The notes under the pieces: model-generated | What the model was told of the DNA's origin: nothing | What the model saw: the letters and a program-made list of their open reading frames with translations, nothing else | The model's database searches: none | Shown: positions 4,471 through 34,480 of the stretch, piece after piece | How the letters are laid out: every line of letters begins with the position of its first letter | Position numbering within the stretch: position 1 is the stretch's first letter | Origin: a phage | Sequence record: PX393109.1 | DNA: 64,000 nt | Reading direction: 5' to 3' (one strand) | Position numbers and translations under genes: made by a program

Positions 4471-4560
4471 TTTTATTTTTCAAATAATGAAAAATAAAAC
4501 GATTTATGAGCCGTCTTTAAGCCCGTTCTTTTGGGTGGCGGGGCGTTCCCGCTGCGGCTC
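4471..4560 (+). promoter_or_regulatory. class B conserved intergenic element (TTTTTCAAATAA...AAAGCCCGTTCTTTTGGGTGGGGCG + GC-rich segment)
   Basis: One of 6 near-identical elements; upstream of small gene 4581..4823 with leader TAATTTGGGATAAAATC-ATG. Confidence 0.55.
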
Positions 4561-10232: not shown

Positions 10233-10235
10233 TCA

Positions 10236-11618
10236 ATGTCAGATTCAAAGGTAGTTACCTGGGGGACGGTGCTAGTAACGGTGGGTATCATACTCGCCAT
10301 TATGTTAGCTCCCACCCAGTTTGGTGCTGTAATGGACTGGAGTAAGTCTGTATTCATATCTCAGTATGGATTCATATTTACCTGGTCTTCGCTGATCTTC
10401 CTAGCGTTCCTGGCATTCTTTGTATTCAGCAAGCATGGTAACATTAAGCTGGGTAAAGGTGCTCCGAAATATAATCGCTTTACCTATTACTCCATGATGT
10501 TTAGTACCGGTATGGGTGTATCCATGATTTATTATGGTGTACTCGAACCTATGTACCATCAGCAGGAGGGTATGTCCGAACGTCAGAATATGGTAACTAC
10601 CTTCTTTGACTGGGGACTTAACGCATGGGCAGTTTATGCAGTCGTAGGGGTGGCATTCGGGTACTTACTGCATGTACGTGGTGAAGACCGTCCGCTTAAT
10701 CAGTTATTCAAGTCCCGAGCTCTGAATAACCTTAATACGATAAGCTTACTCTTCTCTACCATCATAGGCTTAACCCTGTCGTTCGTCTACGCAGTAGGCC
10801 CGATCAGTTCCGGATTTAAAGAGTTCCTGGGAGTGGATGTTGGTCCTTACACCATTATCGCGCTCCTGACTCTGGGTACTGTACTTAGTGCCGTAACTGG
10901 TGTCGATCGTGGGGTTAAGTGGTTATCCAGATATAATGTAATCGTAGCTCTATCTATTATGGCATTCGTTGCTGTAAGTGGTACATTCTTCGAATACCTC
11001 TGGAAGACCATCACCTATTCTGGTAGCTATCTGCTCCAGATTATTCCTATGTCAGTAAACATCGGCAGTACTGCTGAAGAGAAGCAATGGCTGGCTAGCT
11101 GGCCTTATGCTTACTATGCAGCCTGGGTAGGTTGGGCATTATTCGTCGGAGCGTTTGTGGCACGTATCTCTTACGGCCGTACTATTCGCGAACTGATCCT
11201 CGGATGTGTACTGTTCCCTACCATCATCAGTAACGTCTGGTTTACCGTATTCGGTGTAGCTGGTCTACAACATGGTGCTCAGGATATCTTCCAGCTTCTG
11301 GCTAATTTCCCAGGCGGATGGATATTCTCGGTAATTACCCTCGTGTCTGTGATCCTGTTCTTTATTACAGGTCATGACTCAGCAGGTATTACGGTAGAGT
11401 CCATGACCGCTCCTAGAACTCGTGTATTCTGGATTGTAAGCATGGGTGTAGTTGCTGCTGCACTTAACTGGGCAGGTGGCGACGTAGTAACTGTAACGAA
11501 GACTCTGGTAGCTGTATCGGCTGTTCCGGTACTGATTGGGGTATTGTGTATTCTATTCGGGTTCCTCAAGATCTTTGTACCTAAAGTATTCTTGGCTAAG
11601 GAAACTCCGCCTGTTTGA
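10236..11618 (+). CDS. BCCT-family transporter (betaine/carnitine/choline transporter-like)
   Basis: Multi-TM protein with Trp-rich BCCT signature region AWVGWALFVGAFVARISYGRTIRELILG, as I recall it from BetT/CaiT/OpuD. Confidence 0.7.
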   Translation: MSDSKVVTWGTVLVTVGIILAIMLAPTQFGAVMDWSKSVFISQYGFIFTWSSLIFLAFLAFFVFSKHGNIKLGKGAPKYNRFTYYSMMFSTGMGVSMIYYGVLEPMYHQQEGMSERQNMVTTFFDWGLNAWAVYAVVGVAFGYLLHVRGEDRPLNQLFKSRALNNLNTISLLFSTIIGLTLSFVYAVGPISSGFKEFLGVDVGPYTIIALLTLGTVLSAVTGVDRGVKWLSRYNVIVALSIMAFVAVSGTFFEYLWKTITYSGSYLLQIIPMSVNIGSTAEEKQWLASWPYAYYAAWVGWALFVGAFVARISYGRTIRELILGCVLFPTIISNVWFTVFGVAGLQHGAQDIFQLLANFPGGWIFSVITLVSVILFFITGHDSAGITVESMTAPRTRVFWIVSMGVVAAALNWAGGDVVTVTKTLVAVSAVPVLIGVLCILFGFLKIFVPKVFLAKETPPV

Positions 11619-11642
11619 TGACCTAAAAGGCTGTTAAGGTGT
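11607..11642 (+). promoter_or_regulatory. class A conserved promoter-like motif, copy 4
   Basis: CCGCCTGTTTGATGACCTAAAAGGCTGTTAAGGTGT overlapping 3' end of transporter gene. Confidence 0.55.
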
Positions 11643-11653
11643 CAGAGGCGTAC

Positions 11654-11686
11654 GGGGTTAGGTCTCTACGGCCTAACCCCATTTTT
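11654..11686 (+). terminator. hairpin terminator (GGGGTTAGG...CCTAACCCC + ATTTTTG)
   Basis: 9-bp stem and T-run located between class A copy 4 and the next gene; shares CCCCATTTTTGTGTAG tail with terminator at 4437. Confidence 0.6.
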
Positions 11687-11704
11687 GTGTAGCGAGGATT
11701 AATA

Positions 11705-12316
11705 ATGAAGTCACGACTGATTATCAGCCCACATCACGATGATGAGATTCTGGGTTGCGGAGGTATTATGAGCAAATTCCGCGATGACCAATTCTTCATC
11801 CTCGAAGTAACTGCTCCGGACGAGACCCGTCGTGGCGAAGCCGAAGCAGCATTCGGTGTCTATCCGAATATCAAAGAAGTACATTGCCTGGAGCGTAACG
11901 ATGCCTCCACAGGCGATGGTATGACTCAGAAGGATATTCCGCAATTGGCTAAGGATATTGCGGACTATGTTGCTAAAATCAGGCCGGATGTAGTCTATAT
12001 TCCGTTCAGTAGCCTACACCAGGACCATCAACTAGTTAATCATGCTGCTCGTGTAGCTCTCCGAGCGTATAACTGGCTTATCCTGGAATATGAGTATGCC
12101 GAGTCCCTGACCCAGTTCGGTCAGATGGAACCTAATTACTTCGAGCGTCTGAATAAGGACGATATTGAGTGTAAGTGCCAGGCTATGGGACGATTCGACT
12201 CCCAGATTAAGTCAGACCGAGATACCCAGAGTATCTTAGCCCTAGCCACCTTACGTGGATATTCCGCCCAGTGGCCGTACGCCGAAGGGTTTCGCTTAGT
12301 TCGTCAAATTGGATAA
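11705..12316 (+). CDS. PIG-L/LmbE-family deacetylase (N-acetyl-sugar deacetylase-like)
   Basis: N-terminal ISPHHDDEILGCGG and HQDH motifs characteristic of the zinc-dependent LmbE/PIG-L fold. Confidence 0.65.
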   Translation: MKSRLIISPHHDDEILGCGGIMSKFRDDQFFILEVTAPDETRRGEAEAAFGVYPNIKEVHCLERNDASTGDGMTQKDIPQLAKDIADYVAKIRPDVVYIPFSSLHQDHQLVNHAARVALRAYNWLILEYEYAESLTQFGQMEPNYFERLNKDDIECKCQAMGRFDSQIKSDRDTQSILALATLRGYSAQWPYAEGFRLVRQIG

Positions 12317-12322
12317 ATAATT

Positions 12323-13357
12323 ATGACCACCAAAGTAGCTTTTATCATCCCAACCTATCATCGTCTGAAGTCGGTACTCCGTCAGATTCAGTCGTTCAAA
12401 GATGCTAAAAAGACTGACGACTCTATTGAGTATCGCTTCTTCTACTTTATTCAGGATGCCTCCGAAGAAGATAAGGCAATTCTGGAAGAGCAGTTTGGTG
12501 GGGATGAGCAATTTAATTTCTGTCATAGCCCTAAGTACGAAAATCCGGTAATCGGAGAAATCCGTGCCCATGCTCTGGATAAAGCATGGATTGTAATGGA
12601 GAAGCAGGACTGGTGCCCAGACATCTGCTACTTCGTGGATGATGATGTCTGGTTCGCCGACGATATCTTCCATCTGGATCGGTCCATTATCGACTTCGAG
12701 GGATCTGAGTTTGAGATGGCGTTCGTCCGTAGCTTCAAGAACCGTAACTACAAGATTGTTGAACTCTGCGATCGTCAGTCCCATAATAACACTGCTCCGG
12801 CTACTGACCTGGGTATTATGGTCAAGACTAGCGAGAAGATGTTCTGGCTGTTCGATAAGACCTTCCAGCAACTCACTGTAGGTGAGGATTGCTACCTGTT
12901 GTTTAAAGGTATGGCGATGGGATGGAAAGTGGGCCAGGTAACCGGTACTGGTAGCTCGTTCTACTGGGATGAGAACTGGTTAATGGACACCTCTTCTAAT
13001 GGCGGTGGTATTCACGAAGTCACCGTAGCTAAGCTAGGCTACTCTCCGAAAGATATGGTAACTCGTAATGAGCTGCTTAGCCGTCCAGATAAGTCCTACG
13101 TACAGTGGCATTGTGCAGATATGTTCCACTATGACTCTGCAGATAGCTCGTTCCGTCGTATTCGTCCCAACATCCAGGAATACTTGAAAGAGTATTGTAC
13201 GGCTACCGAAGATGCAATTATCCGAGCTCCTGGTGCTGGGGTAATGAAGTTCGATGGAACTAACCGTACGGTATTCGGATTAAACAAAGACTATTCCTAC
13301 TTAACTGATCTCAATGATAAGTGGCTGAGTTGGGCATCAGCTAATTCGCTTCTTTGA
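12323..13357 (+). CDS. GT-A fold glycosyltransferase (family 2-like)
   Basis: N-terminal AFIIPTYHR and DXD-type YFVDDD motifs. Confidence 0.5.
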   Translation: MTTKVAFIIPTYHRLKSVLRQIQSFKDAKKTDDSIEYRFFYFIQDASEEDKAILEEQFGGDEQFNFCHSPKYENPVIGEIRAHALDKAWIVMEKQDWCPDICYFVDDDVWFADDIFHLDRSIIDFEGSEFEMAFVRSFKNRNYKIVELCDRQSHNNTAPATDLGIMVKTSEKMFWLFDKTFQQLTVGEDCYLLFKGMAMGWKVGQVTGTGSSFYWDENWLMDTSSNGGGIHEVTVAKLGYSPKDMVTRNELLSRPDKSYVQWHCADMFHYDSADSSFRRIRPNIQEYLKEYCTATEDAIIRAPGAGVMKFDGTNRTVFGLNKDYSYLTDLNDKWLSWASANSLL

Positions 13358-13382
13358 TGAGCTAAAAGGCTGTTACATTGTG
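13346..13382 (+). promoter_or_regulatory. class A conserved promoter-like motif, copy 5 (core embedded in hairpin GGCTGT..ACAGCC)
   Basis: TCGCTTCTTTGATGAGCTAAAAGGCTGTTACATTGTG. Confidence 0.55.
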
Positions 13383-13404
13383 ACAGCCTACGGAGAAATT
13401 AAAT

Positions 13405-14484
13405 ATGAAAATTGCAGTAACTAACTTTTCGCCATGCAGCGATAAATCCATCATCGCCAGTAACACTCTGGCATCCTGGTTAGCCTACGGACTTCAGGCG
13501 GACTTGCTGGATGATACTCCTAAGTTTGTTAAGGCTATGGAAGATGGCACCAAATATGACGTGATCATCGCCGTCAATGGTGTTCCTACCTTCTGTAAGT
13601 TCCGCGATGAGATGTATAAATTCTGGGTAGACCAGGCGGACCTCGGAGCTAAGTTTTACTGGATTGGTCAAGATTATTCATCACGTATGCGTATCCAGGG
13701 TCCGCAGTGGCGACACATCACAGCAGCTACGACATTTAAAGTAGTAGCAGCATTCGAGCGTACTTCCTGGGGTAATCAGTACTCCCCTAGCGAAGAGAAC
13801 TATCACCACATTAACTGGAACCGTCTTACCTACGTTCCTGGTCGTAAGCCTCGCTACGGCTCATCTGATAAACCAGACAATAGCCTGCTGTATTACGGTG
13901 CTGCTCGTGAAGGTCGCTTCCATAAGTTCACTCAGTACTTCTCCCAGCAGGATGGTCTGGAACTGTTTATGTCGGTGCCTAGCTACAAAGCTCAGATGTC
14001 TATCGCTAAACATACTGGTGGTCTTGCTGGATTTGACGGCTACGAGCAGGAAAACTGGGAAGAGCTGGATCCTAAAGAACGTAAGTGGCTGGGGCCTGCT
14101 GCTCCTATTAACTGGCTGCCTAAGTTTAAGCTGTCAGAGATGCTGGATGAAGTGGCTAAATACGCAGCGGTACTGCTTATTGAAGACTGGAACTCTAGTA
14201 ACTCGTTCTATACCAGCCCACCTAACCGTTATTATGAATACCTGAGCTCTGGTACTCTGATGTTGGTGGATAAAGATGCTGCCGGAACAATAATCCGGAG
14301 CGGCGTCCCCGAAGAGCTGCTGGCTCCTCTGATCGTCTCCAGTAATGCGGAGATTGCAGAGAAACTGAAAGATCGTGATGCTCTGCTGAAACATCAGTAT
14401 GAGAATCTGTATCTGCGCAAGGATTACGCACAAGAACTTCAGGATGAAGTAATCGACTACTTTACCAAAGAAGGTATTCTTTAA
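13405..14484 (+). CDS. DNA beta-glucosyltransferase-like protein (T4 BGT-like, GT-B fold)
   Basis: Several colinear blocks resemble T4 beta-glucosyltransferase as I recall it (MKIAVTNFS vs MKIAIINMG; YDVIIAVNG; YYGAAREGRFHK vs YGGSFRSGQRE; RYYEYLSSGTLMLVD vs RVWETMASDAVMLID). Recall-based, needs alignment. Confidence 0.5.
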   Translation: MKIAVTNFSPCSDKSIIASNTLASWLAYGLQADLLDDTPKFVKAMEDGTKYDVIIAVNGVPTFCKFRDEMYKFWVDQADLGAKFYWIGQDYSSRMRIQGPQWRHITAATTFKVVAAFERTSWGNQYSPSEENYHHINWNRLTYVPGRKPRYGSSDKPDNSLLYYGAAREGRFHKFTQYFSQQDGLELFMSVPSYKAQMSIAKHTGGLAGFDGYEQENWEELDPKERKWLGPAAPINWLPKFKLSEMLDEVAKYAAVLLIEDWNSSNSFYTSPPNRYYEYLSSGTLMLVDKDAAGTIIRSGVPEELLAPLIVSSNAEIAEKLKDRDALLKHQYENLYLRKDYAQELQDEVIDYFTKEGIL

Positions 14485-15455
14485 TGTCAACACCGTTAGG
14501 TCTGCATTACGAAGGACTCCTTGGGATGATAAATCCTGAGGAGTTACGGGAGTATGTGGAGTATAACCGTGAACGTACAGAGGTTTATTATAAGAAGGAG
14601 GTGCTTAAGCTGCCTCCTCCGTGGACGGAACATAAGTGGATTAGTAAGTTCAAATTCACTAACGTGTTCCGTAAGCACGATCGTGAAACAGTGTGGGCTA
14701 TTAAGAACATTCTGGAGAACGATTCTTTAAGCTGGGAGAGTAAAGCACTTAATGTAGTACTCTTCCAGATGATAAACCGTGGTGATTCATATATGGATCG
14801 CTTCCGCAGAGTCCTTCCTCTTTATGAGATGAGCTATGACGACATACATAACATGGGTCGCGAAGAGCTACGTCGTTATGAGGATGGTCCTCCGTTCACC
14901 GCTCCACAGCAATCAAATGCCTACTTCCTTAGCACAGCAGTTAAGATGGCTAATGAAGTATGTCCAGAGGATATTAAGTACAGTGTAGCTGCCAGAGCCT
15001 ATCTGGTGAAGACCTACAGTGATCCTATCTTATGGGCATGGAAGTCTCCGTTCGCTACCGAGGCTATCGAGCATCTGTTACAGGTATCTGGATTAGGTCC
15101 GTTCATGGCATATCAATGCTGGGCAACTATGTCCTACTCTAAAGAGACTGCGTATACAGATAATGACGCTATCGTATGTGGACCTGGGACTCAGGATGGG
15201 GTATGGTACATGATTAATGACCAGAATCCTCCCTGTGGTTATCAGGTATTCGTGGAATGGTGGTATCAGAACATCAAAGAGATATGTGCACATTTCGGGT
15301 ATTCATGGGAACCGGAGAAATGGTTCCACTTCATGCCAGAGGATGAGCGATTCTATACTCGCCAGATGTTCACCAACTCATTCTGCGAATTCTCGAAACT
15401 ACATAAACTGAATCACGAGATCCGTATGAGACCTCGCTGGTATAAGTTTAGCTAG
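14484..15455 (+). CDS. hypothetical protein (323 aa), member of putative modification cluster
   Basis: ORF translationally coupled (TAATG) to upstream gene; no confident domain. Confidence 0.5.
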   Translation: MSTPLGLHYEGLLGMINPEELREYVEYNRERTEVYYKKEVLKLPPPWTEHKWISKFKFTNVFRKHDRETVWAIKNILENDSLSWESKALNVVLFQMINRGDSYMDRFRRVLPLYEMSYDDIHNMGREELRRYEDGPPFTAPQQSNAYFLSTAVKMANEVCPEDIKYSVAARAYLVKTYSDPILWAWKSPFATEAIEHLLQVSGLGPFMAYQCWATMSYSKETAYTDNDAIVCGPGTQDGVWYMINDQNPPCGYQVFVEWWYQNIKEICAHFGYSWEPEKWFHFMPEDERFYTRQMFTNSFCEFSKLHKLNHEIRMRPRWYKFS

Positions 15456-15481
15456 TTCACATTTACACCAGCCTTTTTAGT

Positions 15482-15517
15482 CCGCTCTTTTAGGGTCTTG
15501 AAAGGCTGTTAAAATGT
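15482..15517 (+). promoter_or_regulatory. class A conserved promoter-like motif, copy 6
   Basis: CCGCTCTTTTAGGGTCTTGAAAGGCTGTTAAAATGT. Confidence 0.6.
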
Positions 15518-15544
15518 GGGAAAGATTCTTAATTGGAGAGAATA

Positions 15545-16267
15545 ATGAGAGACTATAGTATCCCAGGCTACAGTGTAATTATGTCTGGTGCGCAGGGTAC
15601 CGGTAAATCTACCCTGGCTAAAGGTTGGGAAGAATCAACCGAATGTACCTTCCGTGCAGTACAGACTCGTGACCATCTTCCTCTGGGAGTAACATCCCAT
15701 ATGGATATTCTGCGCTTAGCTGTAGAAGATCCTATGGAAGCGGTAGAGTTCCAGCTGCGTCTTATTCGTCAGCGAACTCAGATGTTCAAGGATGCCTACA
15801 ATCGTGGCGAGTTGATCGTCAGTGATCGTGCGGTATTCGATTCGTACGTTTACTTCCTGCTGCATAACAGTATGTTTGCCAGCCAGGAAGCTCGTGATGA
15901 GGCATTACGTCTCAGTAACGAGTCTATTGATTATTATAACATGACTCTGTTCTTCAATACGAAGGATAAGAGTATTGAGGACAATAACTTCCGTGTTGTT
16001 GATCCTGAATACTCTGTAGCAGTCAGTTCTACTCTCCTTAAGGTAACTATGCGTGCCTACGAGGAGCGATTCGGTGCTGCGTTGTGTAATTCTGTAACTC
16101 TGAATCATCCGGTGTATCCTGGATCAATCACAGCTCGTTTTACTAATACTGGTAAAGGTATTATGATCCTGAACGAGCCATCTGGTATGATCCCTCAGGA
16201 GGCCCGTCTGGAGTTACTGTCCTCTGCAGTTAAGTCTATTGATTCAGTGCGTAAGGACTCTAAATGA
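15545..16267 (+). CDS. P-loop nucleotide/deoxynucleotide kinase (dNMP kinase-like)
   Basis: Walker A MSGAQGTGKST near N-terminus, DR..FDSYVY lid-like region; size and layout resemble dNMP/dNK kinases. Start at ATG 15545 (track start is TTG). Confidence 0.55.
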   Translation: MRDYSIPGYSVIMSGAQGTGKSTLAKGWEESTECTFRAVQTRDHLPLGVTSHMDILRLAVEDPMEAVEFQLRLIRQRTQMFKDAYNRGELIVSDRAVFDSYVYFLLHNSMFASQEARDEALRLSNESIDYYNMTLFFNTKDKSIEDNNFRVVDPEYSVAVSSTLLKVTMRAYEERFGAALCNSVTLNHPVYPGSITARFTNTGKGIMILNEPSGMIPQEARLELLSSAVKSIDSVRKDSK

Positions 16268-17337
16268 TCTCGGTAATTCGCGGTAACAGTAATACTGAAA
16301 TCCTGGTTAACAGCATCAATACTATGGATAAGGCTGGTGAGTTGCAGAAGTCCAGAACTTCTGTTAACTCTTCGGCGGTAGTATCCATCGGTCATGCTGT
16401 AGTTGAGTTAAGTAATCCGATTAATCGTTGGATGGCTCATCCAGAACGTAAAGACAATATCCTCGGAATTATGGGGGAAGTATTGTGGGTACTGTCTGGT
16501 GGCTATGCAATCGATAACTGGATGTCGATTATGGTTCCTCGCGCTAAGATGTTTAGCGATGATATGGTTACCTGGCGTGGTGCTTACGGTGAGCGTCTGT
16601 ATAACTACGATCAACTCCAGACTGTAACAGACCGCCTCCGTTCTGACCTGGGTAACCGTAAGTGCGTGGCTACTATTCACGATCCCAGCCGTGATTCTGA
16701 TGTAGGTCTGGTAAACAGCATTGGCAGCATCAATACCGCAGATATGATCTGCAACATTGCTCTATCGTTTAAGTACCGTAATGGTGGTCTGGACTGCACG
16801 GTATTCAACCGTAGTAATGATCTAATCTGGGGATTGACTAACGTTAATCTGGTGGAGTTCACGATCATCCAGGAAATCATCGCAACTATGCTCAAAGTAG
16901 ATATGGGCAACTATGTGGTGATGACGGATGATCTCCACTGGTATCCGGAAGTGTCGAACATCAAGAAGCAGGTAAGTAATATCCGAGCTTATGTTGACGA
17001 CATTAATGAAGCTCCGGTAACTACGATTGATCTCGGATCACTTAATTCCTGGTATAAGATCCGTACCTACTTCCAGCATTACATCGCTACTCTTGAAGAT
17101 GCTGCTTCTCGTTATAATAGCGATCACAGTATTCTAGAATACGTAATGGAAGATGTTGGTCGAGAGTTCCAACCAGGATCAACTCTGGATGTGATGATGT
17201 GGTTAGCAGGCGCTCATTATCTATGTAAGACTACTGGAGCTCACATGTCTATCCAGTGCGAGCATCTGGTTAATTCACCATTCGTGAAATGGGTCGCGAA
17301 CCGCCTCGGGGATAAGTCTCCGTTTATTCTGGAATAA
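16264..17337 (+). CDS. thymidylate synthase / deoxypyrimidylate hydroxymethylase superfamily enzyme (ThyA-gp42 fold)
   Basis: Colinear ThyA-family motifs: EVLWVLSGG, WRGAYGERLY, DQLQ..RKCVATIHDP, catalytic-Cys region MICNIAL, NRSNDLIWGL, DDLHWY. The RSND and C-x-N features resemble T4 dCMP hydroxymethylase more than canonical ThyA. Confidence 0.7.
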   Translation: MISVIRGNSNTEILVNSINTMDKAGELQKSRTSVNSSAVVSIGHAVVELSNPINRWMAHPERKDNILGIMGEVLWVLSGGYAIDNWMSIMVPRAKMFSDDMVTWRGAYGERLYNYDQLQTVTDRLRSDLGNRKCVATIHDPSRDSDVGLVNSIGSINTADMICNIALSFKYRNGGLDCTVFNRSNDLIWGLTNVNLVEFTIIQEIIATMLKVDMGNYVVMTDDLHWYPEVSNIKKQVSNIRAYVDDINEAPVTTIDLGSLNSWYKIRTYFQHYIATLEDAASRYNSDHSILEYVMEDVGREFQPGSTLDVMMWLAGAHYLCKTTGAHMSIQCEHLVNSPFVKWVANRLGDKSPFILE

Positions 17338-24270: not shown

Positions 24271-24520
24271 GGGTGGCCGAAAGACCTCCCCTAAAGTCTT
24301 GGTATCTAATCCGAGACGTCCTGGTAAGACAACTGCTCATAAAATAGCTATGGGCATTGATCCGGCTAAGCCTGGGTCTGAGAAGACTGTGGTAGCTAGC
24401 ATGGCTGATATGATGGGAAATAAGCCGTGTTTGGTGCTTACTACCAAGAAGGGTACCGCATTCTTCGCTCATAACGAACCTGCGCATGTAATGGCATGGA
24501 AGTATGGGCTAATTCGATAA
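24251..24520 (+). CDS. hypothetical basic protein (89 aa)
   Basis: ORF overlapping polymerase 3' end; Lys/Arg-rich N-terminus. Confidence 0.35.
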   Translation: MARKQRKGGRKTSPKVLVSNPRRPGKTTAHKIAMGIDPAKPGSEKTVVASMADMMGNKPCLVLTTKKGTAFFAHNEPAHVMAWKYGLIR

Positions 24521-24522
24521 AA

Positions 24523-24558
24523 CCGCTCTTTTGATGACTCGAAAGGCTGTTAAAGTGT
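24523..24558 (+). promoter_or_regulatory. class A conserved promoter-like motif, copy 9
   Basis: CCGCTCTTTTGATGACTCGAAAGGCTGTTAAAGTGT; followed by 5' UTR hairpin GATGGTG..CACCATC. Confidence 0.6.
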
Positions 24559-24632
24559 TTGGGCGAAAAGGGTAGCTCCCCTGATGGTGCCGCTTCACCA
24601 TCTAGCCCATTTTATTCTAAGCGGAGAATATT

Positions 24633-25358
24633 ATGACACATGAAGAGTTTCTGAGTAAGTATTACAACTTTACCACGCAAAGATGGATTTGTCCGTATTG
24701 CGACGATCCAGATACCTCTTATAATTATAAGAGATCATTTGGTGTCCATCTCCGGAAGTGCCACAATAAAACTGCGCTAGACATACCTAAGGATATTATA
24801 ACTGATCCTGGGTATGGCGTATGTCTAAACTGTGGAGGAGAGTCTACTTTCCGTGGATTAGTTCAAGGTCACTCTAACTTCTGCAGCACCACATGCAGTA
24901 ATAATTATCCTAAACATAGAGATGTCGTTAGGAAAATATTTGTAGAGAATCAGAAGGATCCAAATTTTAGATTAAAGAATGCAGAATCTATACGTAAAAC
25001 TTACTCTGATCCAGAGAAACGAGCTAGCTGTGATAGGCAGATAGCTCTAGCCTCTCTTAATGAAGAGTGCTATTTTTATATTTGGGTAGTGGACGACTCG
25101 TTCGTGAAAATAGGAGTGACTAACGATCCACACTCCAGGATACGTAATGTTATTCCCGAATTCTTTAAGATGAATAAATTAGATGCCACTGACTTAGAGT
25201 ATGATATTAAAGTATCTACTCCTAGAGTCGACTACGACCTAGTCAAGCATATTATCCAGAGTGGCCATACAGAAGTTAGGAGAATAGAATTCCTTCCGTT
25301 AATACGGGAGAAATTAGAAGCTAAACTTAAGGAAGGAGCTTCTACCCAGGATGACTGA
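24633..25358 (+). CDS. Cys-rich (zinc-finger-like) protein with T5orf172/GIY-YIG-like region; AT-rich, atypical codon usage
   Basis: CxxC/C2HC clusters at N-terminus; central FYIWVVDDSFVKIGVTN resembles the GIY-YIG-like T5orf172 core; heavy AGA/ATA/TTA codon use unlike flanking genes. Confidence 0.4.
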   Translation: MTHEEFLSKYYNFTTQRWICPYCDDPDTSYNYKRSFGVHLRKCHNKTALDIPKDIITDPGYGVCLNCGGESTFRGLVQGHSNFCSTTCSNNYPKHRDVVRKIFVENQKDPNFRLKNAESIRKTYSDPEKRASCDRQIALASLNEECYFYIWVVDDSFVKIGVTNDPHSRIRNVIPEFFKMNKLDATDLEYDIKVSTPRVDYDLVKHIIQSGHTEVRRIEFLPLIREKLEAKLKEGASTQDD

Positions 25359-25394
25359 TCATCATCCTTTTATGTCGACATATTGGAGAAAATA

Positions 25395-26846
25395 ATGACT
25401 AAGGCCCAAAATTTACTCACTCTGTTGATGAGTGAACAAATAGTGGACGAGGATCTAGCCTCGGTAGAGCGTTTCATCGACCAGCGTATGATTGATCACG
25501 CTGTCGCTGACATCGAGAAGAATGGTAAGAGCAGTCAATGGTATACTATGTTCCGCAAGATGCAGAATACCAGTGATGCTAACCTGCGTGACTACTATTC
25601 TTATCTTATGATGATGCCCCAGCAGATGGCTAAGAATTTGCTACGAGAGTTCGTACAGAAAGAAGTTCGTTCTGGTACGTTCTCTGCTGATGCATTCTTT
25701 GCGGAAGATGGCGAAGGTGGCTCTACCCAGCTGAACATGATGGATGCTTATGAGACTCCGGATGGTTCTGCTATGGGTATGTTCACAGAGTTGGCTGCCA
25801 GCAACAGAAATAATAACCCTGAAGAGATCACTACGATAAACGATTTTTTAGATAAGTTTATCAACCATCCTAAACTATCTTCCAGCTCTAAGCTAGTGGT
25901 AATTGCCCGATTGATTACTGGTGATGCGGCAGGTCGTGGTAGCATGACGAGTGGTGCTGGTCTGCAGCTCAACGAGTTTGTGGACGATCTACCGAAGGAG
26001 TATGATCAGGTCATGGCTCAGATCAAGCGTCTTATCGATGCTGGATTCACTATGGACCAGATTAACTCCACCATGATCTTACGTGGTGCAGAACGTACCG
26101 ACGATCAGGGTAATAAGAAGTCCGTAGCGCAGCTGGTGACTAACCATAAGATCAACCAGACTGGCGATAACGTAACTCAGGTAATTAAGGATCTGACTGG
26201 CCAGGATGTGAAGGTTACTCCTGACGGTCGCTGGGATCTGAAACCTGTTTACCGCTGGTTGATGGGACGATCTGTCAACGAAGATCTGTCTAAGGGAGAA
26301 GTCCCTGATATGATCAAAGACGATGGTGGTCGCTGGTACATTAAGTACAAGGACATGGTTTGGAACCCGACTAAGAACGAGTTCATGAATCTGTCCGAAG
26401 CATCCGACGATGATCTGTCCGCATGCTACACTACCGATATGGCTACTGCTAACTCCTGGAAGCTATCTGCTGCTGAGAGTACGGCTATGCCTGAGGGAGT
26501 AGACGAAGCGGCTCCGTCGGAAGTGCTCCGTCGCGTTAACAAGGTTATCGAAGTACTGATGGGCGGTAAAGGTTCTGTACGTACCTCCGACCTTATCAGC
26601 ACTCTGGTCATCTTCGTAGCGCTGGCTAAGCAGGTTAAGTCACCAGTCATTAAGACCTGGCCATCCCAGGATATTAAAACTGTGGCTCGTAAATACCTGA
26701 AGGATGCTAAGTCTGGTAGTCCTAAGGCTAAGCGCGGAGTACTAGCCATGATTATGTCTGTAATCATGAAGCTTAATCCTCGTCTGCAGCAATCCTGGCG
26801 TAAACAGTCCCAACGTATTACCCAGGCAATCAGCAAAGCTCGCTGA
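25395..26846 (+). CDS. hypothetical protein (483 aa)
   Basis: Long ORF with RBS GGAGAAAATA-ATG; no domain recognised. Confidence 0.5.
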   Translation: MTKAQNLLTLLMSEQIVDEDLASVERFIDQRMIDHAVADIEKNGKSSQWYTMFRKMQNTSDANLRDYYSYLMMMPQQMAKNLLREFVQKEVRSGTFSADAFFAEDGEGGSTQLNMMDAYETPDGSAMGMFTELAASNRNNNPEEITTINDFLDKFINHPKLSSSSKLVVIARLITGDAAGRGSMTSGAGLQLNEFVDDLPKEYDQVMAQIKRLIDAGFTMDQINSTMILRGAERTDDQGNKKSVAQLVTNHKINQTGDNVTQVIKDLTGQDVKVTPDGRWDLKPVYRWLMGRSVNEDLSKGEVPDMIKDDGGRWYIKYKDMVWNPTKNEFMNLSEASDDDLSACYTTDMATANSWKLSAAESTAMPEGVDEAAPSEVLRRVNKVIEVLMGGKGSVRTSDLISTLVIFVALAKQVKSPVIKTWPSQDIKTVARKYLKDAKSGSPKAKRGVLAMIMSVIMKLNPRLQQSWRKQSQRITQAISKAR

Positions 26847-26875: not shown

Positions 26876-26975
26876 AAAAATATTTTTCACTATTGAATGT
26901 TTTTGAAAAATAAAACGAACTTTGAACCTCCTCAAAGCCCGTTCTCTTGGGTGGGGCGGGTTGGCCGCTTCACGG
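26869..26975 (+). promoter_or_regulatory. class B conserved intergenic element, copy 2
   Basis: TTTTTCAAAAATA...GAAAAATAAAACGA...AAAGCCCGTTCTCTTGGGTGGGGCGGG followed by TATAAT 12 nt before the RBS. Confidence 0.55.
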
Positions 26976-28501: not shown

Positions 28502-30016
28502 ATGATCGTATCAAAGTCCTTGAATGAATTACACCGTCTTATTGATATGAAAGAAGCAACCTACACCACTCCGGTGCGTTTTTACTTCTCTGATGGTCCT
28601 AAAGAAACTACTATCGGTCGACTGTTTATTTGGGAAATCAGCGGCTATCTTCCAGAGAAAGAAATAGATAAGAAGGAATCTGCGAAGATCGTCTCTTACA
28701 TCAATAATAACTATACTCCGGAAGTGGCTGGTCGCCGACTGCATAAGTTGCAGCAGTTCGGATTTCATAAGGCTACTCAGTCTGGTCTGAGTTTATGTTA
28801 CGACGACACTAAGTTTGACTTCGGTATAGACTTTCCAGCCATGACTCAGGAACTCGGTAAGATGGGGTACGAGGATCGTCTGGCTGCTGCGGATAAAGTC
28901 ATCAACGAATGTACCGATCGCTGGTTTAAGGAAGTAGACCGTCATAATCCGCTGTATGCGATGGGTGTATCTGGTGCTCGTGTATCTCCTCCCCAGGTTC
29001 GTTCGATGGTGGTGGCTAAAGGCCTTCTGGTGGGCATGACTGGCAAGATCATGCCGATGCCGATCATGGAGAACTTAAGCTCTGGATTATCTCCCATCAA
29101 CTACTTCAATACCTGCGGACCTGCTCGTAAGGGTCTGGCTGGTAACTTCTTCCTGGTACCTGCGACTGGTTGGTTTGCTCGCCAGCTGGTTAACTGTTCC
29201 AGAGAGTTGTCTATTGTAGAAGAAGACTGCGGAACTAAGGAAGTAATCACCTTACCTAAGAAATCAGCACTGTATCGATTCACTAGCGACCGAATAATGG
29301 TTACTAAAGAGAATGTGGATCAGCTGGCGGATGAAGAAGGTAATGTGAAAGTCCTTAGCCCTATCACCTGTGAATCAACTAAGGGTGGGGTATGTCAGCA
29401 TTGCTGTGGTATGGATCCCGCTAAGCCTGCTAACTTCTTCCCTATTAACTTCGGTATTGGAACGGCGTCGGCGCAACATATCTCCGAACCATCTACTCAG
29501 GCTGGTCTCCGTGGTAAGCATACATCTGGTTCGACTACGCTTAAGGAATTCGGTACTTCGGTAAGTAACTCCTTAGCCGATATCCTGAAGACGGTAGGTG
29601 GCCGAGGAACTGCGGTGGCTCAGGTATCTGAGTCTAAGTATAAGTGCATCACGGATCTTGCCCACGAAACTGGATCAGCAATTAAAGGTGCAGAGTTAGC
29701 TGCGATTCAGCTTAAGCACATCTTCGACGACATCGGTATCGGTATCGCATCGATTCACCATGAGATCATTGCTCGCGGTTGTACTGATCTGGTTAAGATG
29801 AATAATGGACGAATCGGTGTTCGCAGCATGGGAGATAAGGGTGAGGTACTGGCGATTAAAGCCGATGCCATCCCTACGAAGCATCCCAGCTGGTTGAAGT
29901 CTATTGGCCATGGTAACGTTAAACGTAGACTTACTGATGCAGTGCTTAATGGTGATGTTAGCTTCGGAACCCGTTCCGAGATGATCATTGCTGGGTTAAA
30001 TCTGAATAACAAATAA
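28502..30016 (+). CDS. RNA polymerase beta-prime-like subunit, C-terminal half (bridge helix/trigger loop region)
   Basis: NTCGPARKGLAGNFFLVPATGWFARQLV resembles beta-prime region F (STHGARKGLADTALKTA..GYLTRRLV); ASAQHISEPSTQAGLRGKH resembles trigger-loop AAQSIGEPGTQLTMRTFH. Confidence 0.75.
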   Translation: MIVSKSLNELHRLIDMKEATYTTPVRFYFSDGPKETTIGRLFIWEISGYLPEKEIDKKESAKIVSYINNNYTPEVAGRRLHKLQQFGFHKATQSGLSLCYDDTKFDFGIDFPAMTQELGKMGYEDRLAAADKVINECTDRWFKEVDRHNPLYAMGVSGARVSPPQVRSMVVAKGLLVGMTGKIMPMPIMENLSSGLSPINYFNTCGPARKGLAGNFFLVPATGWFARQLVNCSRELSIVEEDCGTKEVITLPKKSALYRFTSDRIMVTKENVDQLADEEGNVKVLSPITCESTKGGVCQHCCGMDPAKPANFFPINFGIGTASAQHISEPSTQAGLRGKHTSGSTTLKEFGTSVSNSLADILKTVGGRGTAVAQVSESKYKCITDLAHETGSAIKGAELAAIQLKHIFDDIGIGIASIHHEIIARGCTDLVKMNNGRIGVRSMGDKGEVLAIKADAIPTKHPSWLKSIGHGNVKRRLTDAVLNGDVSFGTRSEMIIAGLNLNNK

Positions 30017-30024
30017 CTTGGGAG

Positions 30025-30717
30025 ATGGATGTGGGCAAGATCTATAATCCCCTGCTGATCCATACAGTAGGGGACAGTATATGCTACGAGGGACGTAAGT
30101 TCATAGGTACAGATGCCCTACAACCAGTCTGGTATAATGGGATAGAGTCGCATATAGACGACATAGACGACTTTTGGACTACCGATTGGTATCCTATCAG
30201 AAACTTCACTATCGCAGGAAGTAAGGCGGTACTCCGGAGAAATCTGGCATGTGAAGGGTTCGGTGGTATGCAACTGTACTATCTGTTGGCTACTCACAAA
30301 ACCTATATTAATGAAAAATATCGACATAATCTTATTGACGATATTAGTAATCGGCGGTATTACGGAATGGGCAATGGTATTCTACGGATTGTGGAAGAAC
30401 TATTGAAGTCGTTCCCTACTATCATAACAGATGATCGTTTCATAATTAAGGAACTAGGGGATATGGTGGTCCCTATAGAAGACGTGATTACTTGCGGACG
30501 TAGAGATCGTAAGCTGTACTCTAAGGAAACCGTAAGAGACTACATCAATAAGCAGCGCATCCAGGATCTGTCTTCCCAAGGTCGGGTAATGACTCTGCTA
30601 TTGTCTAATGTGGAATTATCCAGCGCAATTATCTATGAGACTCAGGATAAGCGTAACTGTGCATGTACGATGATTAACTATCGTCGCTCTCGCAAGATGC
30701 CTCCTAACCAAAAATAA
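30025..30717 (+). CDS. hypothetical protein (230 aa), AT-rich with atypical codon usage, inserted between RNAP subunit genes
   Basis: ORF with GGGAG RBS; rich in ATA/AGA/AAA codons relative to flanking genes. Confidence 0.45.
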   Translation: MDVGKIYNPLLIHTVGDSICYEGRKFIGTDALQPVWYNGIESHIDDIDDFWTTDWYPIRNFTIAGSKAVLRRNLACEGFGGMQLYYLLATHKTYINEKYRHNLIDDISNRRYYGMGNGILRIVEELLKSFPTIITDDRFIIKELGDMVVPIEDVITCGRRDRKLYSKETVRDYINKQRIQDLSSQGRVMTLLLSNVELSSAIIYETQDKRNCACTMINYRRSRKMPPNQK

Positions 30718-30720
30718 TTG

Positions 30721-30798
30721 AAATTTATTTTTCAAATAACCGATTTTTGGGAACTCATAAAGCCCGTTCTTTTGGGTGGGGCGCGGTCGCGCTTCACT
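30721..30798 (+). promoter_or_regulatory. class B conserved intergenic element, copy 4
   Basis: AAATTTATTTTTCAAATAACCGATTTTT...AAAGCCCGTTCTTTTGGGTGGGGCGCGGTCGCGC. Confidence 0.55.
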
Positions 30799-30824
30799 GG
30801 ATAATCTAATTTGGAGCTAATACT

Positions 30825-31580
30825 ATGTCGCGTTTATGGTGGCTGGTATTACTTCGCGCTTTGATAGCAGGTAACCGAGCGACTGAGAGGTCGCTCTTTG
30901 AATTCTCTAATTGGGATAGACCAATGACCGCTAACTATAAGTTCCATGAAACATTCAACATTGCTAACACTGGGGACGAGTACATCGACTTATCCTTCTA
31001 TGATAGCGCACTAGATTCAGGAGATTTACGTTCGCTAGACCGTAACATTGCTCGTGTTAACAATAATCCATATGTTGCCGATTCTATCGTATCGCATGAG
31101 TATCTTCGGGTAGTTAACCCAACTGGTTATATGGCTAAAACTGGTGATACTCGTCACGAAGATAAAGAAACGATGGATCGTCGTCACATAATGTCCTTTA
31201 ACGAGTCTACTCTCGTAACGGACGATGATGGCGAAAGTCGTGTGGAATTAATCGATCCTGCTTCCATTAGCCCAGACCAGAAATCACCCATAGCGCGTTC
31301 TCGTGATCTGAAGCTCCTGGTGAACGGTGTAATCGATTACATCATGCAGAAATATCCTGCTAAACGTGAAGCTAGTTTGAAGATGTTTGCGTTTATGATG
31401 GTAGTGAGTGGTGCTGACCAGAGTGTCACACATCCTACTCTTCGTCGCTACATCAATCATCTTCGCCAACAACAACCTGTGCAGTTCAAATACATGCATC
31501 AGTATTGTGGTACTCAGCATGCGGCTAAAGTAGCTCGTGAAATCGTTCGTGAAGCCTATACTGTCGTCGCTAAGCCTTGA
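30825..31580 (+). CDS. hypothetical protein (251 aa)
   Basis: ATG preceded by TAATTTGGAG leader and class B element. Confidence 0.5.
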   Translation: MSRLWWLVLLRALIAGNRATERSLFEFSNWDRPMTANYKFHETFNIANTGDEYIDLSFYDSALDSGDLRSLDRNIARVNNNPYVADSIVSHEYLRVVNPTGYMAKTGDTRHEDKETMDRRHIMSFNESTLVTDDDGESRVELIDPASISPDQKSPIARSRDLKLLVNGVIDYIMQKYPAKREASLKMFAFMMVVSGADQSVTHPTLRRYINHLRQQQPVQFKYMHQYCGTQHAAKVAREIVREAYTVVAKP

Positions 31581-31595
31581 TTAGGAGAAATTAAA

Positions 31596-33164
31596 ATGAA
31601 ATTAAAGTTATCTATTGCAACTGATGATGTAATCCGTGCCGAGTCCAGTGGTGAAGTAACCAGTATGGGCATGTATAACCTTAAGTTCCATGATCCTAAG
31701 CCATTCACTGGTGGGTTATTCTGCCAGCGTATCTTCGGACCTCTGGTAACTGGTAAGTGTGAGTGTGGTAACCAGCTGGTTATGGGAGCGCCTCCGTGTA
31801 ATGTGTGCGGTATGGTAGCTATGCATCGTGAATCTCGTCGCCGCCGTATGGGTCACATCGAGACGATCGTTCCTTATGTGAATCCATTAGCTATCAAACG
31901 TATGGCTGCGCTATTCGGATTCCCAGAGCGAGAATTCGGTCAGTTCCTTATCGGTAAATATCGCTTCGTAGTTCAGGAAGCTGGTCTGGCAGCTAAGATG
32001 GTTGGTGATGATCGGGAGCGGGTTCGTGAGGCTAATGCTGCTCTTCCGGAATATGAAGATCGTGAGAAGTATGCGATGTTCTACTCTAACACTATCCCAG
32101 TTCAGGATAGCACGAAGCGCCTCGCAGTGGTAATGATTAAGATCCGCCGTATGTCAGAGCACGAGTCATCAGAGTTAGGTCTTCTGAGTCTTATCCAGGC
32201 ATTGGTAGCTAATCATGCTGATATGAAAGCCTATATCGAAGAGTGCGAAGATCCTACAGTAATCAATAGTGGTTATACAGAGTTCAGCGACTTCTATAAC
32301 ACTACGGTGCTGGTGAATCCTCCTAGCTATCGTGATGTTGGCATCAGCAATGGGGTAATGTCGTATCATCCGACTAACTTACTCTACCTGCGAATCCTGC
32401 GCCATGCTATCCGTATCAGAAGTATTCGCGATACTGCCGAGGCCAGCGAAGCGTTGTTATCTCTGATTCCTCGTGAATCTATTGTAATGCAGAAGATGGT
32501 TAACGGACTAATCCTGGAGGGCACTAAGGACTATCGAGGTAACTTAATTAAGCCGATGATCAATAATCTTAAAGGTAAGGGTGGTCGAATCCGTGGTAAC
32601 CTGTTAGGTAAGCGCGTTGATTACTCCGGTCGTTCTGTAGTTACTTCGGCTCCGCATCTTCCGCTGGATACTCTTGGTGTACCGTTCAAGATGATGTACG
32701 AATTACTTCAGCCAGACATCCTGGGTGAGCTGGAGAACTTATATGGTGGCCCGACTAACGAAGGGTACAACATGTACGACATCAGCAATAAAGTCCAGCG
32801 TATGTACAAGAATAAGTCCCGAGTAGCTCTGGAAGTATGCTGGAGACTGTGTGAGAATGCCACGGTGTTCATGAACCGTGCACCATCCCTACACCGTTAC
32901 TCAGTATGGGGATTTAAGGTCAGACCTCACATGGGTAAGGAGATTCAGGTTCCTCCGATGGCTATGGGTGGTCAGAACATGGACGTGGATGGTGATACCG
33001 CAGCAATTCACCGTGTACTGACTGATCGTGCTTGCTGGGAAGTACGTAGCCTGATGATGGTTAACCAGAACATCAACAGCTCTATTGACTTCGATAGTCC
33101 GGTCGTGAAGCCGTCCCACGAAATGGTGGTAGGTCTGTTCCAGGCAACTACGGTGGATATGTAA
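31596..33164 (+). CDS. RNA polymerase beta-prime-like subunit, N-terminal half (zinc ribbon to catalytic loop)
   Basis: GGLFCQRIFGP...CECG...CNVCG...RRRRMGHIE resembles the beta-prime N-terminal zinc-binding region; NMDVDGDTAAIH matches catalytic NADFDGDQMAVH near C-terminus. Confidence 0.75.
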   Translation: MKLKLSIATDDVIRAESSGEVTSMGMYNLKFHDPKPFTGGLFCQRIFGPLVTGKCECGNQLVMGAPPCNVCGMVAMHRESRRRRMGHIETIVPYVNPLAIKRMAALFGFPEREFGQFLIGKYRFVVQEAGLAAKMVGDDRERVREANAALPEYEDREKYAMFYSNTIPVQDSTKRLAVVMIKIRRMSEHESSELGLLSLIQALVANHADMKAYIEECEDPTVINSGYTEFSDFYNTTVLVNPPSYRDVGISNGVMSYHPTNLLYLRILRHAIRIRSIRDTAEASEALLSLIPRESIVMQKMVNGLILEGTKDYRGNLIKPMINNLKGKGGRIRGNLLGKRVDYSGRSVVTSAPHLPLDTLGVPFKMMYELLQPDILGELENLYGGPTNEGYNMYDISNKVQRMYKNKSRVALEVCWRLCENATVFMNRAPSLHRYSVWGFKVRPHMGKEIQVPPMAMGGQNMDVDGDTAAIHRVLTDRACWEVRSLMMVNQNINSSIDFDSPVVKPSHEMVVGLFQATTVDM

Positions 33165-33694
33165 TGAAGAAACATGCTATCGGTGAGAAAGATGTTGGTA
33201 GAGTTATCCACTTCGAGGGTACTCCCGAACGCGGTCTGGACCCTGCGGGCTATATAACAATCTTCTCAGATGCATCGTACTGTCATAAGAGTAAGGCTGC
33301 TGGTTTCGGAGGATGGATTCGTCTTCCTGGTGAGCAGCGAGCTCATATAACTCGCGGAGGATTTACTGCTGTAGATAATAACTGGGCAGAGCTAGAAGGG
33401 ATCATGAAGACCCTATGGTTTGCCATGACTAAGACAGCATTCGATGGTGTTAGGGTAGTCGTCCAATGCGATTGCGAATGGGCATTAAAGGAATTCATAG
33501 ATAAGCATATGGAAATGCTTCGCGATCTTAACCCTAAGTCCATTAAGGTTAAGCATGTCAAAGGTCATCAGAAGTTCAATAATCCTCGCTACAAAGTAAA
33601 TAATCTCTGTGATGAGATAGCTAAGCAGGAAATGGTTAAGTATAGAAATAAACTTAAAGGATACACAGATGCTGGGATTTTTAGTGGTGCATAA
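33164..33694 (+). CDS. rnhA: ribonuclease H (type 1)
   Basis: ITIFSDASY..AGFGGWI, NNWAELEG, VVVQCDCEWA, VKGHQKFNNPRYKVNNLCDEIAKQ align with RNase HI catalytic D-E-D-D/H motifs. Confidence 0.7.
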   Translation: MKKHAIGEKDVGRVIHFEGTPERGLDPAGYITIFSDASYCHKSKAAGFGGWIRLPGEQRAHITRGGFTAVDNNWAELEGIMKTLWFAMTKTAFDGVRVVVQCDCEWALKEFIDKHMEMLRDLNPKSIKVKHVKGHQKFNNPRYKVNNLCDEIAKQEMVKYRNKLKGYTDAGIFSGA

Positions 33695-33968
33695 GGAGCA
33701 CGGTGCTCTCTGTGGAGTAAACGAGTTTTACACCTCATGGACCGGTCTCGGCTGTAATCCAGATACCACCGCAGCATTCTTCGAGACTTATGAAGAGGCT
33801 GGATTAATATCTGAACTGTTGCAAGATCCAAACGTATCAGTATTCGGACCAATCTATCAAGACTCTGAAGTAACTGATAAGATTCCTGTAAGTATTGTGG
33901 AATCGTTGGGTATCAAATGCTCCTACTATAGGCAGGAGCCCGAAAATAAACTACCATGGCCATGGTGA
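33669..33968 (+). CDS. hypothetical protein (99 aa)
   Basis: ORF overlapping RNase H 3' end; weak evidence. Confidence 0.3.
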   Translation: MLGFLVVHKEHGALCGVNEFYTSWTGLGCNPDTTAAFFETYEEAGLISELLQDPNVSVFGPIYQDSEVTDKIPVSIVESLGIKCSYYRQEPENKLPWPW

Positions 33969-33973
33969 TAAAA

Positions 33974-34480
33974 ATGAATAAAGCTGAAGTAGTGTTAGGA
34001 CTTGTACAGTCCGTGGACGAGGGTTACTCCTCGGTAAAATTCTGTCCAGACTCTGATGCCTGGATAGATAATCTTAAGCAGGTTATCTCTGAAGTAGCTG
34101 ATTATGATAAGCTTAACTTCGATACCGGTCACGATAACCACTGCACCCTTATGTATGCTCCGGGGACTGGTGCTCCGGATGAGGGAACTATTGCTGATCT
34201 GGTAGGTAGCAAACTTCATCTGAAGAATCCTCGCTATGAGATCTTCGGTGAGAATGCTAACTACCTGGTGCTGGCGTTCGATAGCGATCTGCTACAATCG
34301 TTTAACTATCGACTCCGTGCATCTGGGGAGGTACCGTCTGAGATCAGTGCGGAATACTCTCCTCACATAACTCTGGCCAAGGACGTAGAGAATCTGGATA
34401 TCTCTACTCTACCAGAATTACCGACCGATCTGTATTTAAACATCACTAGCGTAACTGCTGAGGAAATCAAGAATGACTAA
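33974..34480 (+). CDS. hypothetical protein (168 aa)
   Basis: ATG after GGTGATAAAA; ORF to 34480. Confidence 0.45.
   Translation: MNKAEVVLGLVQSVDEGYSSVKFCPDSDAWIDNLKQVISEVADYDKLNFDTGHDNHCTLMYAPGTGAPDEGTIADLVGSKLHLKNPRYEIFGENANYLVLAFDSDLLQSFNYRLRASGEVPSEISAEYSPHITLAKDVENLDISTLPELPTDLYLNITSVTAEEIKND

Follow-up and report, generated by a model that had tools for sequence, protein, structure and literature searches.

A beta-prime subunit encoded by two genes

A 64,000-nucleotide (nt) stretch of phage DNA (sequence record PX393109.1, the whole of which is here termed the window) contains two genes encoding the halves of a beta-prime subunit of multisubunit RNA polymerase. The gene for the C-terminal half (beta'C) lies upstream of that for the N-terminal half (beta'N), and between them stand open reading frames (ORFs) for proteins of 230 and 251 amino acids (aa), termed Y and X respectively, giving the order beta'C, Y, X, beta'N. 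The ORF coordinates agree with this arrangement, first described in an earlier note on the same DNA, and the profile matches to RpoC-type domains which that note proposed as a check were found for both halves. In Pfam, beta'N matches RNA_pol_Rpb1_1 (E 3.3e-14) and Rpb1_2 (E 3.4e-23) and beta'C matches Rpb1_5 (E 2.8e-12), with Rpb1_3 and Rpb1_4 falling just under the curated cut-off. Salmonella RpoC, the sequence of which came from a bacterial contig inside the phage collection, recovers beta'N at E 5.6e-53 and beta'C at E 1.1e-25. Rpb1 domains 1-5 are present and collinear with Salmonella RpoC across the two proteins, both of which also match phrog_25354, a family of 1,216 positions annotated as of unknown function (beta'N at positions 9-507, beta'C at 615-827). 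On the E. coli/Salmonella beta-prime numbering, beta'N ends at approximately residue 518 and beta'C starts at approximately 535, placing the cut about 50 residues past the catalytic loop, after the active-site domain.

The catalytic features ascribed to each half on first inspection occupy conserved alignment columns. The zinc ribbon (CxC...CxxC), the clamp coiled-coil region and the NMDVDGD catalytic loop are carried by beta'N, and the bridge helix, the second zinc site, the trigger loop with its His and region H by beta'C. The N, D, D, G and D of the catalytic loop are invariant in the alignment of N-terminal halves (A6), and that of C-terminal halves (A9) contains GPARKGLA...G(W/Y)..RQLV and GIGTASAQHISEPSTQ..LRGKHTSG, with an invariant trigger-loop His. 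When YerA41 and Salmonella are included, NRAP, GKRVDYSGRS, NxDxDGD, the trigger-loop His and the zinc ligands are still invariant. The SI3 insertion, jaw and C-terminal tail of E. coli beta-prime have no counterpart in beta'C in alignment A9, and the two phage proteins total approximately 1,026 aa against 1,407 in host-type RpoC. Bacterial RpoC is about 31% identical to beta'N over 99% of the query. Each half is full-length and free of frameshifts, with its own ribosome-binding site, start and stop; that of beta'N is an AGGAG 9 nt upstream of the start. Domain content and catalytic motifs alike place the protein in the RpoC/Rpb1 superfamily, from which it departs in having no phage-encoded cognate beta. 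At the level of domains and motifs, the locus is thus shown to encode a bacterial-type beta-prime with all catalytic determinants, divided between two genes.

Absence of a beta subunit

The locus is 95-96% identical to those of the Escherichia phages vB_EcoM_IME392 (116 kilobases, kb) and EP_H11 (111 kb), in which the gene order is the same. The observation that no beta-like subunit is evident in the window was upheld when the search was extended to the whole EP_H11 genome. Neither Salmonella RpoB, YerA41 beta nor a hidden Markov model (HMM) of 28 beta sequences had a match in the window or in complete EP_H11, among all ORFs of 50 aa or longer in the six frames (loci L010, L002, L003 and L011); the best score, E 0.01, was a low-complexity match. 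A tblastn search of 50,697 phage records with YerA41 beta found none in IME392, EP_H11, Ralstonia phage RP13, Acinetobacter phage Ab1-TPeters, ten RHph records, or Vibrio 1.031.O, Va2 and 150E35-1. The same search finds YerA41, GN1, Carin-5, Arash and Vibrio D69-type phages, and even AR9, PBS1 and phiR1-37. The phages without a match are exactly those with the beta-prime closest to that of the window, at 30-50% identity. The clade as defined here comprises IME392, EP_H11, Ab1-TPeters, RP13, the RHph phages, Vibrio 1.031.O and Va2, the metagenomic contig L006, and L013 and L094; the window shares its distinguishing traits, namely a beta-prime in this identity range, no beta in the genome and an X-family gene adjacent or near. 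As the beta-prime is about as near to bacterial RpoC as to any phage enzyme, a co-diverged beta would be easily detectable. Hence, to the extent that such searches recognise a beta, the phage lineage and its clade are shown to encode none.

This bears on the comparison with jumbo phages that had been drawn for the locus. The similarities are that the beta-prime homologue of the PhiKZ and AR9 types is split after the active-site barrel, as also described for cyanobacterial beta-prime, that its pieces are not necessarily adjacent or ordered, and that alpha and omega are not encoded (PMC7598289); there is also a weak match to the N-terminal beta-prime of AR9 and PBS1. The analogy is nevertheless misleading, as those phages encode their own split beta-like subunits, are independent of the host polymerase and have far more diverged enzymes: AR9 aligns at 23% identity over 31% of the query, against the 31% over 99% of bacterial RpoC. 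In the mapping of split sites to E. coli numbering, exon 2 of AR9 gp270 gave no alignment. Jumbo phages exceed 200 kb and have a core gene set (e.g. a split PolB), unlike the relatives considered here, which are of 111-116 kb and have a family A DNA polymerase. A jumbo-type split polymerase, with beta-like genes elsewhere in the genome and its order interrupted by unrelated genes, is therefore very improbable: the complete EP_H11 genome contains no beta-like ORF in any frame, the relatives' genomes are not of jumbo size and the intervening genes are conserved companions, as described below.

Genes accompanying beta-prime

The two genes between the halves had been regarded as unrelated to them, a description that does not survive comparison between genomes: the beta'C-Y-X block is syntenic in RP13 and L095, and X homologues lie near beta-prime in Ab1-TPeters, RHph_TM30, L013 and L094. 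The X protein has a conserved N-terminal motif, (F/Y)Y..A.....L..DY.LARVFN.P, followed by a helical C-terminal domain. Its homologue lies directly upstream of beta'N in Ab1-TPeters (E 6.6e-13), two genes after beta'C in RP13 (ORF152), between Z (see below) and beta'N in L094, and, in L095, after an ORF that resembles Y; RHph_TM30 has two copies (gp338 and gp336) upstream of its unsplit beta-prime, and in L013 the ORF immediately preceding the unsplit beta-prime gene resembles X weakly. An exhaustive HMMER search found 38 clusters among 1.84 billion (1.84e9) representatives, all of 146-280 aa. A profile of 39 X sequences found no match in 79 beta-containing polymerase loci from IMG/VR or in YerA41, suggesting that the family is found only in phages with a beta-less beta-prime.

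Only three homologue clusters of Y were found among 5.8e9 proteins; the gene directly follows beta'C in L006 also, and in RP13 and L095 a 215-aa ORF occupies the syntenic position after beta'C, with marginal similarity (E 0.03-0.04). The earlier description of Y as AT-rich was overstated, in that its GC content is mildly low (42.7%, against 45.6% for the window) and no more than that. Upstream of beta'C is a gene for a third companion, Z, of 487 aa, with homologues of 403 aa in L006 and of 553 aa in L094, the latter lying between a PolA DNA polymerase gene and X-beta'N. In Ab1-TPeters the homologue is CDS0042 (E 6.7e-44), 1.5 kb downstream of beta'C; none was detected in the regions of RP13 and RHph_TM30 examined. 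Since X adjoins or lies near beta-prime in every related lineage examined, the genes between the halves are, judged by this synteny, conserved companions and not passengers. Similarly, Y appears to follow the C-terminal half wherever a homologue is detectable, and Z to travel with beta-prime. The comparisons accordingly show a conserved module of Z, beta'C, Y, X and beta'N beside a PolA-type DNA polymerase.

No Pfam, PHROG or PDB-sequence match was found for X, Y or Z, nor any Foldseek match for the models of X and Z. These AlphaFold2 models are weak, with predicted local distance difference test (pLDDT) scores of 54.7 and 55.0, although the C-terminal helical bundle of X reaches 70-87. Given these results, a sigma-like nature of X or Z is neither supported nor excluded. 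Homologues of sigma, alpha and omega were also absent from 20 further phage ORFs, in a search that was not exhaustive. The N-terminus of Z gave recurring matches to X in small-database phmmer and hmmsearch comparisons (E 0.009-0.02), yet profile-profile comparison was not significant (probabilities of 1.5% and 0.2%), and the idea that X, Y and Z are paralogues sharing an N-terminal core-binding motif was not adopted.

Resemblances to beta were considered for several proteins and rejected. In Y, the strings GDSICYEGRK, YPIRNFTIAG and CEGFGGMQ recall the beta motifs GDK..GNKG, PSRM and GEME by eye, but are unconserved in homologues of 35-59% identity. In Z, an ETPDG string and a faint Pfam Rpb2_3 match (E 0.091) are similarly unconserved, the Pfam match being confined to the two closest Z sequences. 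RP13 ORF139 and ORF140 are topoisomerase subunits. More generally, it could be supposed that the phage polymerase is self-contained and that Z, Y, X or other proteins constitute a beta diverged past recognition, as some jumbo-phage subunits nearly are. Their conservation beside beta-prime with no known function would suit such a role, as would their combined size of approximately 970 aa, near that of a minimal beta (924 aa in YerA41), and the low confidence of the X and Z models leaves room for it. This is nonetheless unlikely. A beta co-evolving with a beta-prime that is only moderately diverged should be similarly recognisable, whereas the beta HMM, RpoB and YerA41 beta all lack a match. X and Z are predicted to be mostly helical, as are the confident parts of their models, and so do not resemble beta-like barrels. 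Furthermore, Z is undetected in the RP13 and RHph_TM30 regions, and the genes flanking beta-prime in RHph_TM30 and L013 are all small.

Gene order within the clade

The placing of the C-terminal half before the N-terminal half is not peculiar to the window. In L006, which represents a distinct lineage (47% identity to the window in beta'N, 35-36% in Y and 38% in X), the order is PolA DNA polymerase, Z, two small ORFs, beta'C, Y, X, beta'N and RNase H. That the same order is found in the IME392, EP_H11 and L006 assemblies implies that the arrangement is genuine and not an assembly artefact, a possibility the earlier note had named as one that would undermine it. A rearrangement of this kind, or the decay of a single gene into remnants, has nothing in its favour besides the unusual order, and is scarcely credible when two isolate genomes and a metagenomic contig of a distinct lineage agree, and when each half is intact with every catalytic position conserved.

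Other members of the clade are arranged differently, and the inverted order loses the unusual status it had first been given. In RHph_TM30 and L013 beta-prime is one unsplit gene; in Vibrio phages 1.031.O and Va2 the two beta-prime matches are contiguous, N then C; in RP13 the split is at the same site, but the N-terminal half comes first and five small ORFs separate it from the C-terminal half (ORF150, 37% identical to beta'C); and in Ab1-TPeters the C-terminal half lies 40 kb from the N-terminal half. As the halves would be separate polypeptides joining after translation, and their order is fluid in the clade, the reversal would carry no mechanistic meaning. On this comparative evidence, the reversed order is one among several rearrangements of what are predicted to be independently translated fragments, and is not the remarkable feature of the locus; the unusual feature is an apparently catalytically intact beta-prime without a beta.

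The comparison also corrects two database annotations: IME392 AXY86067.1, annotated as 'beta subunit', is in fact beta'N, and EP_H11 WBU87653.1, annotated as 'hypothetical', is beta'C. In Ab1-TPeters (L004, positions 9989-11836), beta'N is matched in two pieces across three small annotated coding sequences, which may reflect an intron, a frameshift or faulty annotation. Between Y and X, IME392 (L001, 22216-22722, against window 30717-30825) has approximately 400 extra bases, at which the match breaks into two pieces; these are absent from EP_H11, as from the window.

Promoter-like elements and hypermodification genes

A bipartite element of about 34 nt, with the invariant pattern CG...TT...AAAG.C.GTT....TG, has 18 exact core matches in the window against 0.11 expected, and all copies are intergenic and on the + strand. 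It occurs as two variants: class A (AAAGGCTGTTAA), found 15 or more times in the window, and class B (AAAGCCCGTTCT, with a GC-rich hairpin after it), found five to seven times. The class B element reported ahead of the 251-aa ORF is real, and another precedes beta'C. The element is lineage-specific, is not sigma70-like and has no copy in the block of late genes on the minus strand of EP_H11. Around the locus, sigma70-like sites show no enrichment, numbering 11 against 19.4 expected.

A cluster of thymidine-hypermodification genes, together with a transporter, lies within positions 10236-17337 of the window, and the DNA polymerase upstream of the module belongs to family A (PolA). IME392 is among the phages with a PolA DNA polymerase resembling that of YerA41 (PMC12686479), an enzyme that replicates thymidine-hypermodified DNA (PMC10201439).

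Comparison with known polymerases

The closest cellular counterpart is bacterial RpoC, with which the phage beta-prime is collinear over essentially the full conserved length, sharing Rpb1 domains 1-5, both zinc sites, an NADFDGD-type loop, the bridge helix and the trigger loop. It differs in consisting of two polypeptides, split at approximately 520-535, and in having X, Y and Z alongside but no rpoB. The RpoC1-RpoC2 pair of cyanobacteria and chloroplasts likewise forms a functional beta-prime from two polypeptides, by description split after the active-site domain (PMC7598289), but this is a cellular enzyme with its own beta, and its genes are adjacent in the order N then C.

Among phages, the YerA41/Carin-5 type shares a YerA41-like PolA, hypermodification genes of the 5-hydroxymethyldeoxyuridine (5-hmdU)-derived kind, a beta-prime in two genes and a location in the replication or early region. 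In YerA41, however, beta'N, beta'C and beta form a contiguous operon in that order, the 924-aa beta (E 2.8e-46 to RpoB) lying immediately downstream; its split site is elsewhere, the N-terminal half ending at approximately 590 and the C-terminal half starting at approximately 675; it has no member of the X family; and its beta-prime is only 25-27% identical to that of the window over half the length. RHph_TM30 and its relatives (Kleczkowskaviridae), Vibrio 1.031.O, Va2 and PHROG 25354 belong to the same clade as the window, with 30-33% identity in both halves. In this unsplit group the gene is beside PolA and there is no beta, with X paralogues upstream seen in RHph_TM30; the latter differs from the window in having a single gene of 1,127 aa that keeps a jaw-like insert.

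The YonO type is similar in being a relative of beta-prime encoded by a mobile element without a separate beta gene. Forrest et al. reportedly found in 2017 that YonO has both barrels in one chain and that most beta-prime domains are absent, whereas the beta-prime of the window is complete and canonical, contains a single barrel and lacks an Rpb2-type region. A further possibility is that the phage protein forms a novel enzyme that uses its barrel without a beta-type partner, having X, Y and Z as structural partners, or that it has a role in priming or RNA processing. The position of the module among replication genes, with PolA upstream and RNase H and an RNA-ligase-like gene downstream, is compatible with this, as is the restriction of the companions to the clade. 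It is an improbable reading all the same, for the active site of characterised members of the superfamily, single-chain YonO and the crAss-like enzymes included, is built from two double-psi barrels, and the collinearity with bacterial beta-prime extends to the regions that contact beta, arguing for a canonical partner.

The level of variation in phage polymerase genes was also apparent in IMG/VR, where a search with a single beta-prime protein gave no loci and one with an alignment as query gave 80, L013 alone belonging to the clade. Proteins of approximately 1,400-1,900 aa (in L044, L047, L048, L054-L060, L071, L072, L076, L077, L079 and L081-L092) match the active-site barrel region of beta-prime alone (query approximately 315-518), and no beta lies closer than 10 kb; they are distinct from the clade of the window, and may be single-chain enzymes like YonO. 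Giant single ORFs of approximately 2,000-2,400 aa in L019, L022, L023, L028, L030, L039, L042, L043 and others match both RpoB and RpoC, and appear to be fused beta-beta-prime genes. Other contigs have beta-prime followed by beta, such that the gene architectures of phage polymerases are varied.

A possible hybrid with the host enzyme

Phages are known either to redirect the host RNA polymerase by means of small factors or to encode an entire polymerase themselves, and an intact beta-prime without a beta fits neither strategy. In every polymerase of the superfamily known to us, the active centre is formed by two double-psi beta-barrels, the second of which is supplied by beta. As this second barrel is needed and the phage has no beta, the fragments most likely use that of the host. 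The explanation tentatively favoured, although it is held with slightly less than even confidence, is that the two-piece phage beta-prime joins host beta and alpha in a chimeric polymerase that, helped by X and Z, would read thymidine-hypermodified DNA from a new type of bipartite promoter.

Under this hybrid model, the beta-prime fragments would associate with beta, alpha2 and perhaps omega of the host, taking the place of host beta-prime in a hybrid core. X and Z, both helical and specific to the clade, would act as accessory subunits in assembly, promoter specificity or both, steering the hybrid to the non-sigma70 class A and class B promoter-like elements. The lack of SI3, jaw and C-terminal tail might adapt the enzyme to the hypermodified template, and an alternative or added benefit could be that the enzyme is spared when the phage shuts off host beta-prime. 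Active enzyme can be reassembled from fragments of E. coli beta-prime, and hybrid polymerases with heterologous subunits have been reconstituted.

A number of points weigh against the hybrid model. Identity between the phage and host beta-prime is only about 31%, and the phage protein is without the C-terminal tail, which in beta-prime helps to bind omega; compatibility with the host subunits is consequently uncertain. No similarity of X, Y or Z to sigma factors or to a known fold was detected, and the roles proposed for them are guesses. The genome of the phage outside the 64-kb window was judged through relatives that are 95-96% identical across the locus. We know of no precedent for a phage replacing beta-prime alone, and literature searches found no description either of a beta-less phage beta-prime or of a beta-prime-only replacement. 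The phage polymerases described by Sokolova et al. (PMC7598289) all have both catalytic subunits.

The lack of an encoded partner beta would also be expected if the phage beta-prime were non-catalytic, serving as a decoy or regulator that silences host transcription by titrating host beta, sigma or other factors, and phages often encode inhibitors that bind the host polymerase. This appears quite unlikely, because the Asp triad, trigger-loop His, bridge helix and both zinc sites are invariant across split and unsplit lineages of 31-58% identity, a mere binder is not expected to retain catalytic residues, and approximately 1,030 aa would be a very costly means to this end.

Were the hybrid model correct, it would represent the first natural swap of a catalytic subunit, a strategy not described for any virus and a new way for one to take over transcription. 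It would also provide a route to asking how a polymerase adapts to bulky thymidine modifications, and X, Y and Z would become candidates for new polymerase-binding or promoter-specificity factors. As the host is E. coli and the isolates IME392 and EP_H11 exist, the model is experimentally tractable.

Neighbouring genes and minor features

The features of the window are listed in Table 1. The RNase H-like gene that follows beta'N with overlapping stop and start occupies the same position in L006. The HNH-like ORF between the DNA polymerase gene and Z was rejected as a member of the module, being HNH-like, low in GC and absent from L006 and L007; its absence from this position in both contigs implies that it is probably a mobile homing endonuclease insertion.

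Table 1. Coordinates of genes and promoter-like elements in the window
Feature	Position	Strand	Remarks
beta'C, beta-prime C-terminal half	28502..30016	+	504 aa; Pfam, RpoC match, alignment A9, residue mapping
beta'N, beta-prime N-terminal half	31596..33164	+	522 aa; Pfam, RpoC match, alignment A6
X, 251-aa ORF	30825..31580	+	218 aa if Met34 start (IME392 annotation); 251 aa in EP_H11
Y, 230-aa ORF, orphan	30025..30717	+	directly after beta'C; start probably GTG 30031, giving 228 aa
Z, 487-aa companion protein	25383..26846	+	mostly helical prediction; upstream of beta'C; homologues adjoin beta-prime genes
BCCT/BetT-type transporter	10236-11618		460 aa; unusual cargo for lytic phage
PIG-L-type deacetylase	11705-12316		
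Glycosyltransferase-like ORF	13405-14484		weak
5-hmdU DNA kinase	14484-15455		E 4.8e-35
Thymidylate-synthase-like gene	16264-17337		annotated in relatives
HNH-like endonuclease ORF	24633-25358		241 aa; PHROG 681; GC 38.8%
RNase H-like gene	within 33164-34480		directly downstream of beta'N; Pfam RNase_H E 1.8e-08
PHROG 'RNA ligase' family ORF	33956-34480		further downstream of RNase H-like gene
Class A element CCGCTCTTTT-N9-AAAGGCTGTTAAAGTGT	24510..24567 (core 24542)	+	upstream of HNH ORF and Z
Class A cores	5094, 8444, 11626, 15501, 17357, 20941, 24542, 34826, 40583, 46619, 51688, 53085, 55804, 56879	+	motif matches
Class B element	26904..26969 (core 26934)	+	GC-rich hairpin after; upstream of three or four small ORFs, beta'C and Y
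Class B element	30729..30794 (core 30759)	+	upstream of X and beta'N
Further class B copies	cores 35570, 39069; 4488-4553	+	motif matches

At positions 529-683, inside an ORF at 124-756, the window contains tandem repeats with a 12-nt period, which encode an acidic low-complexity stretch of the (K/D)-S-D type.

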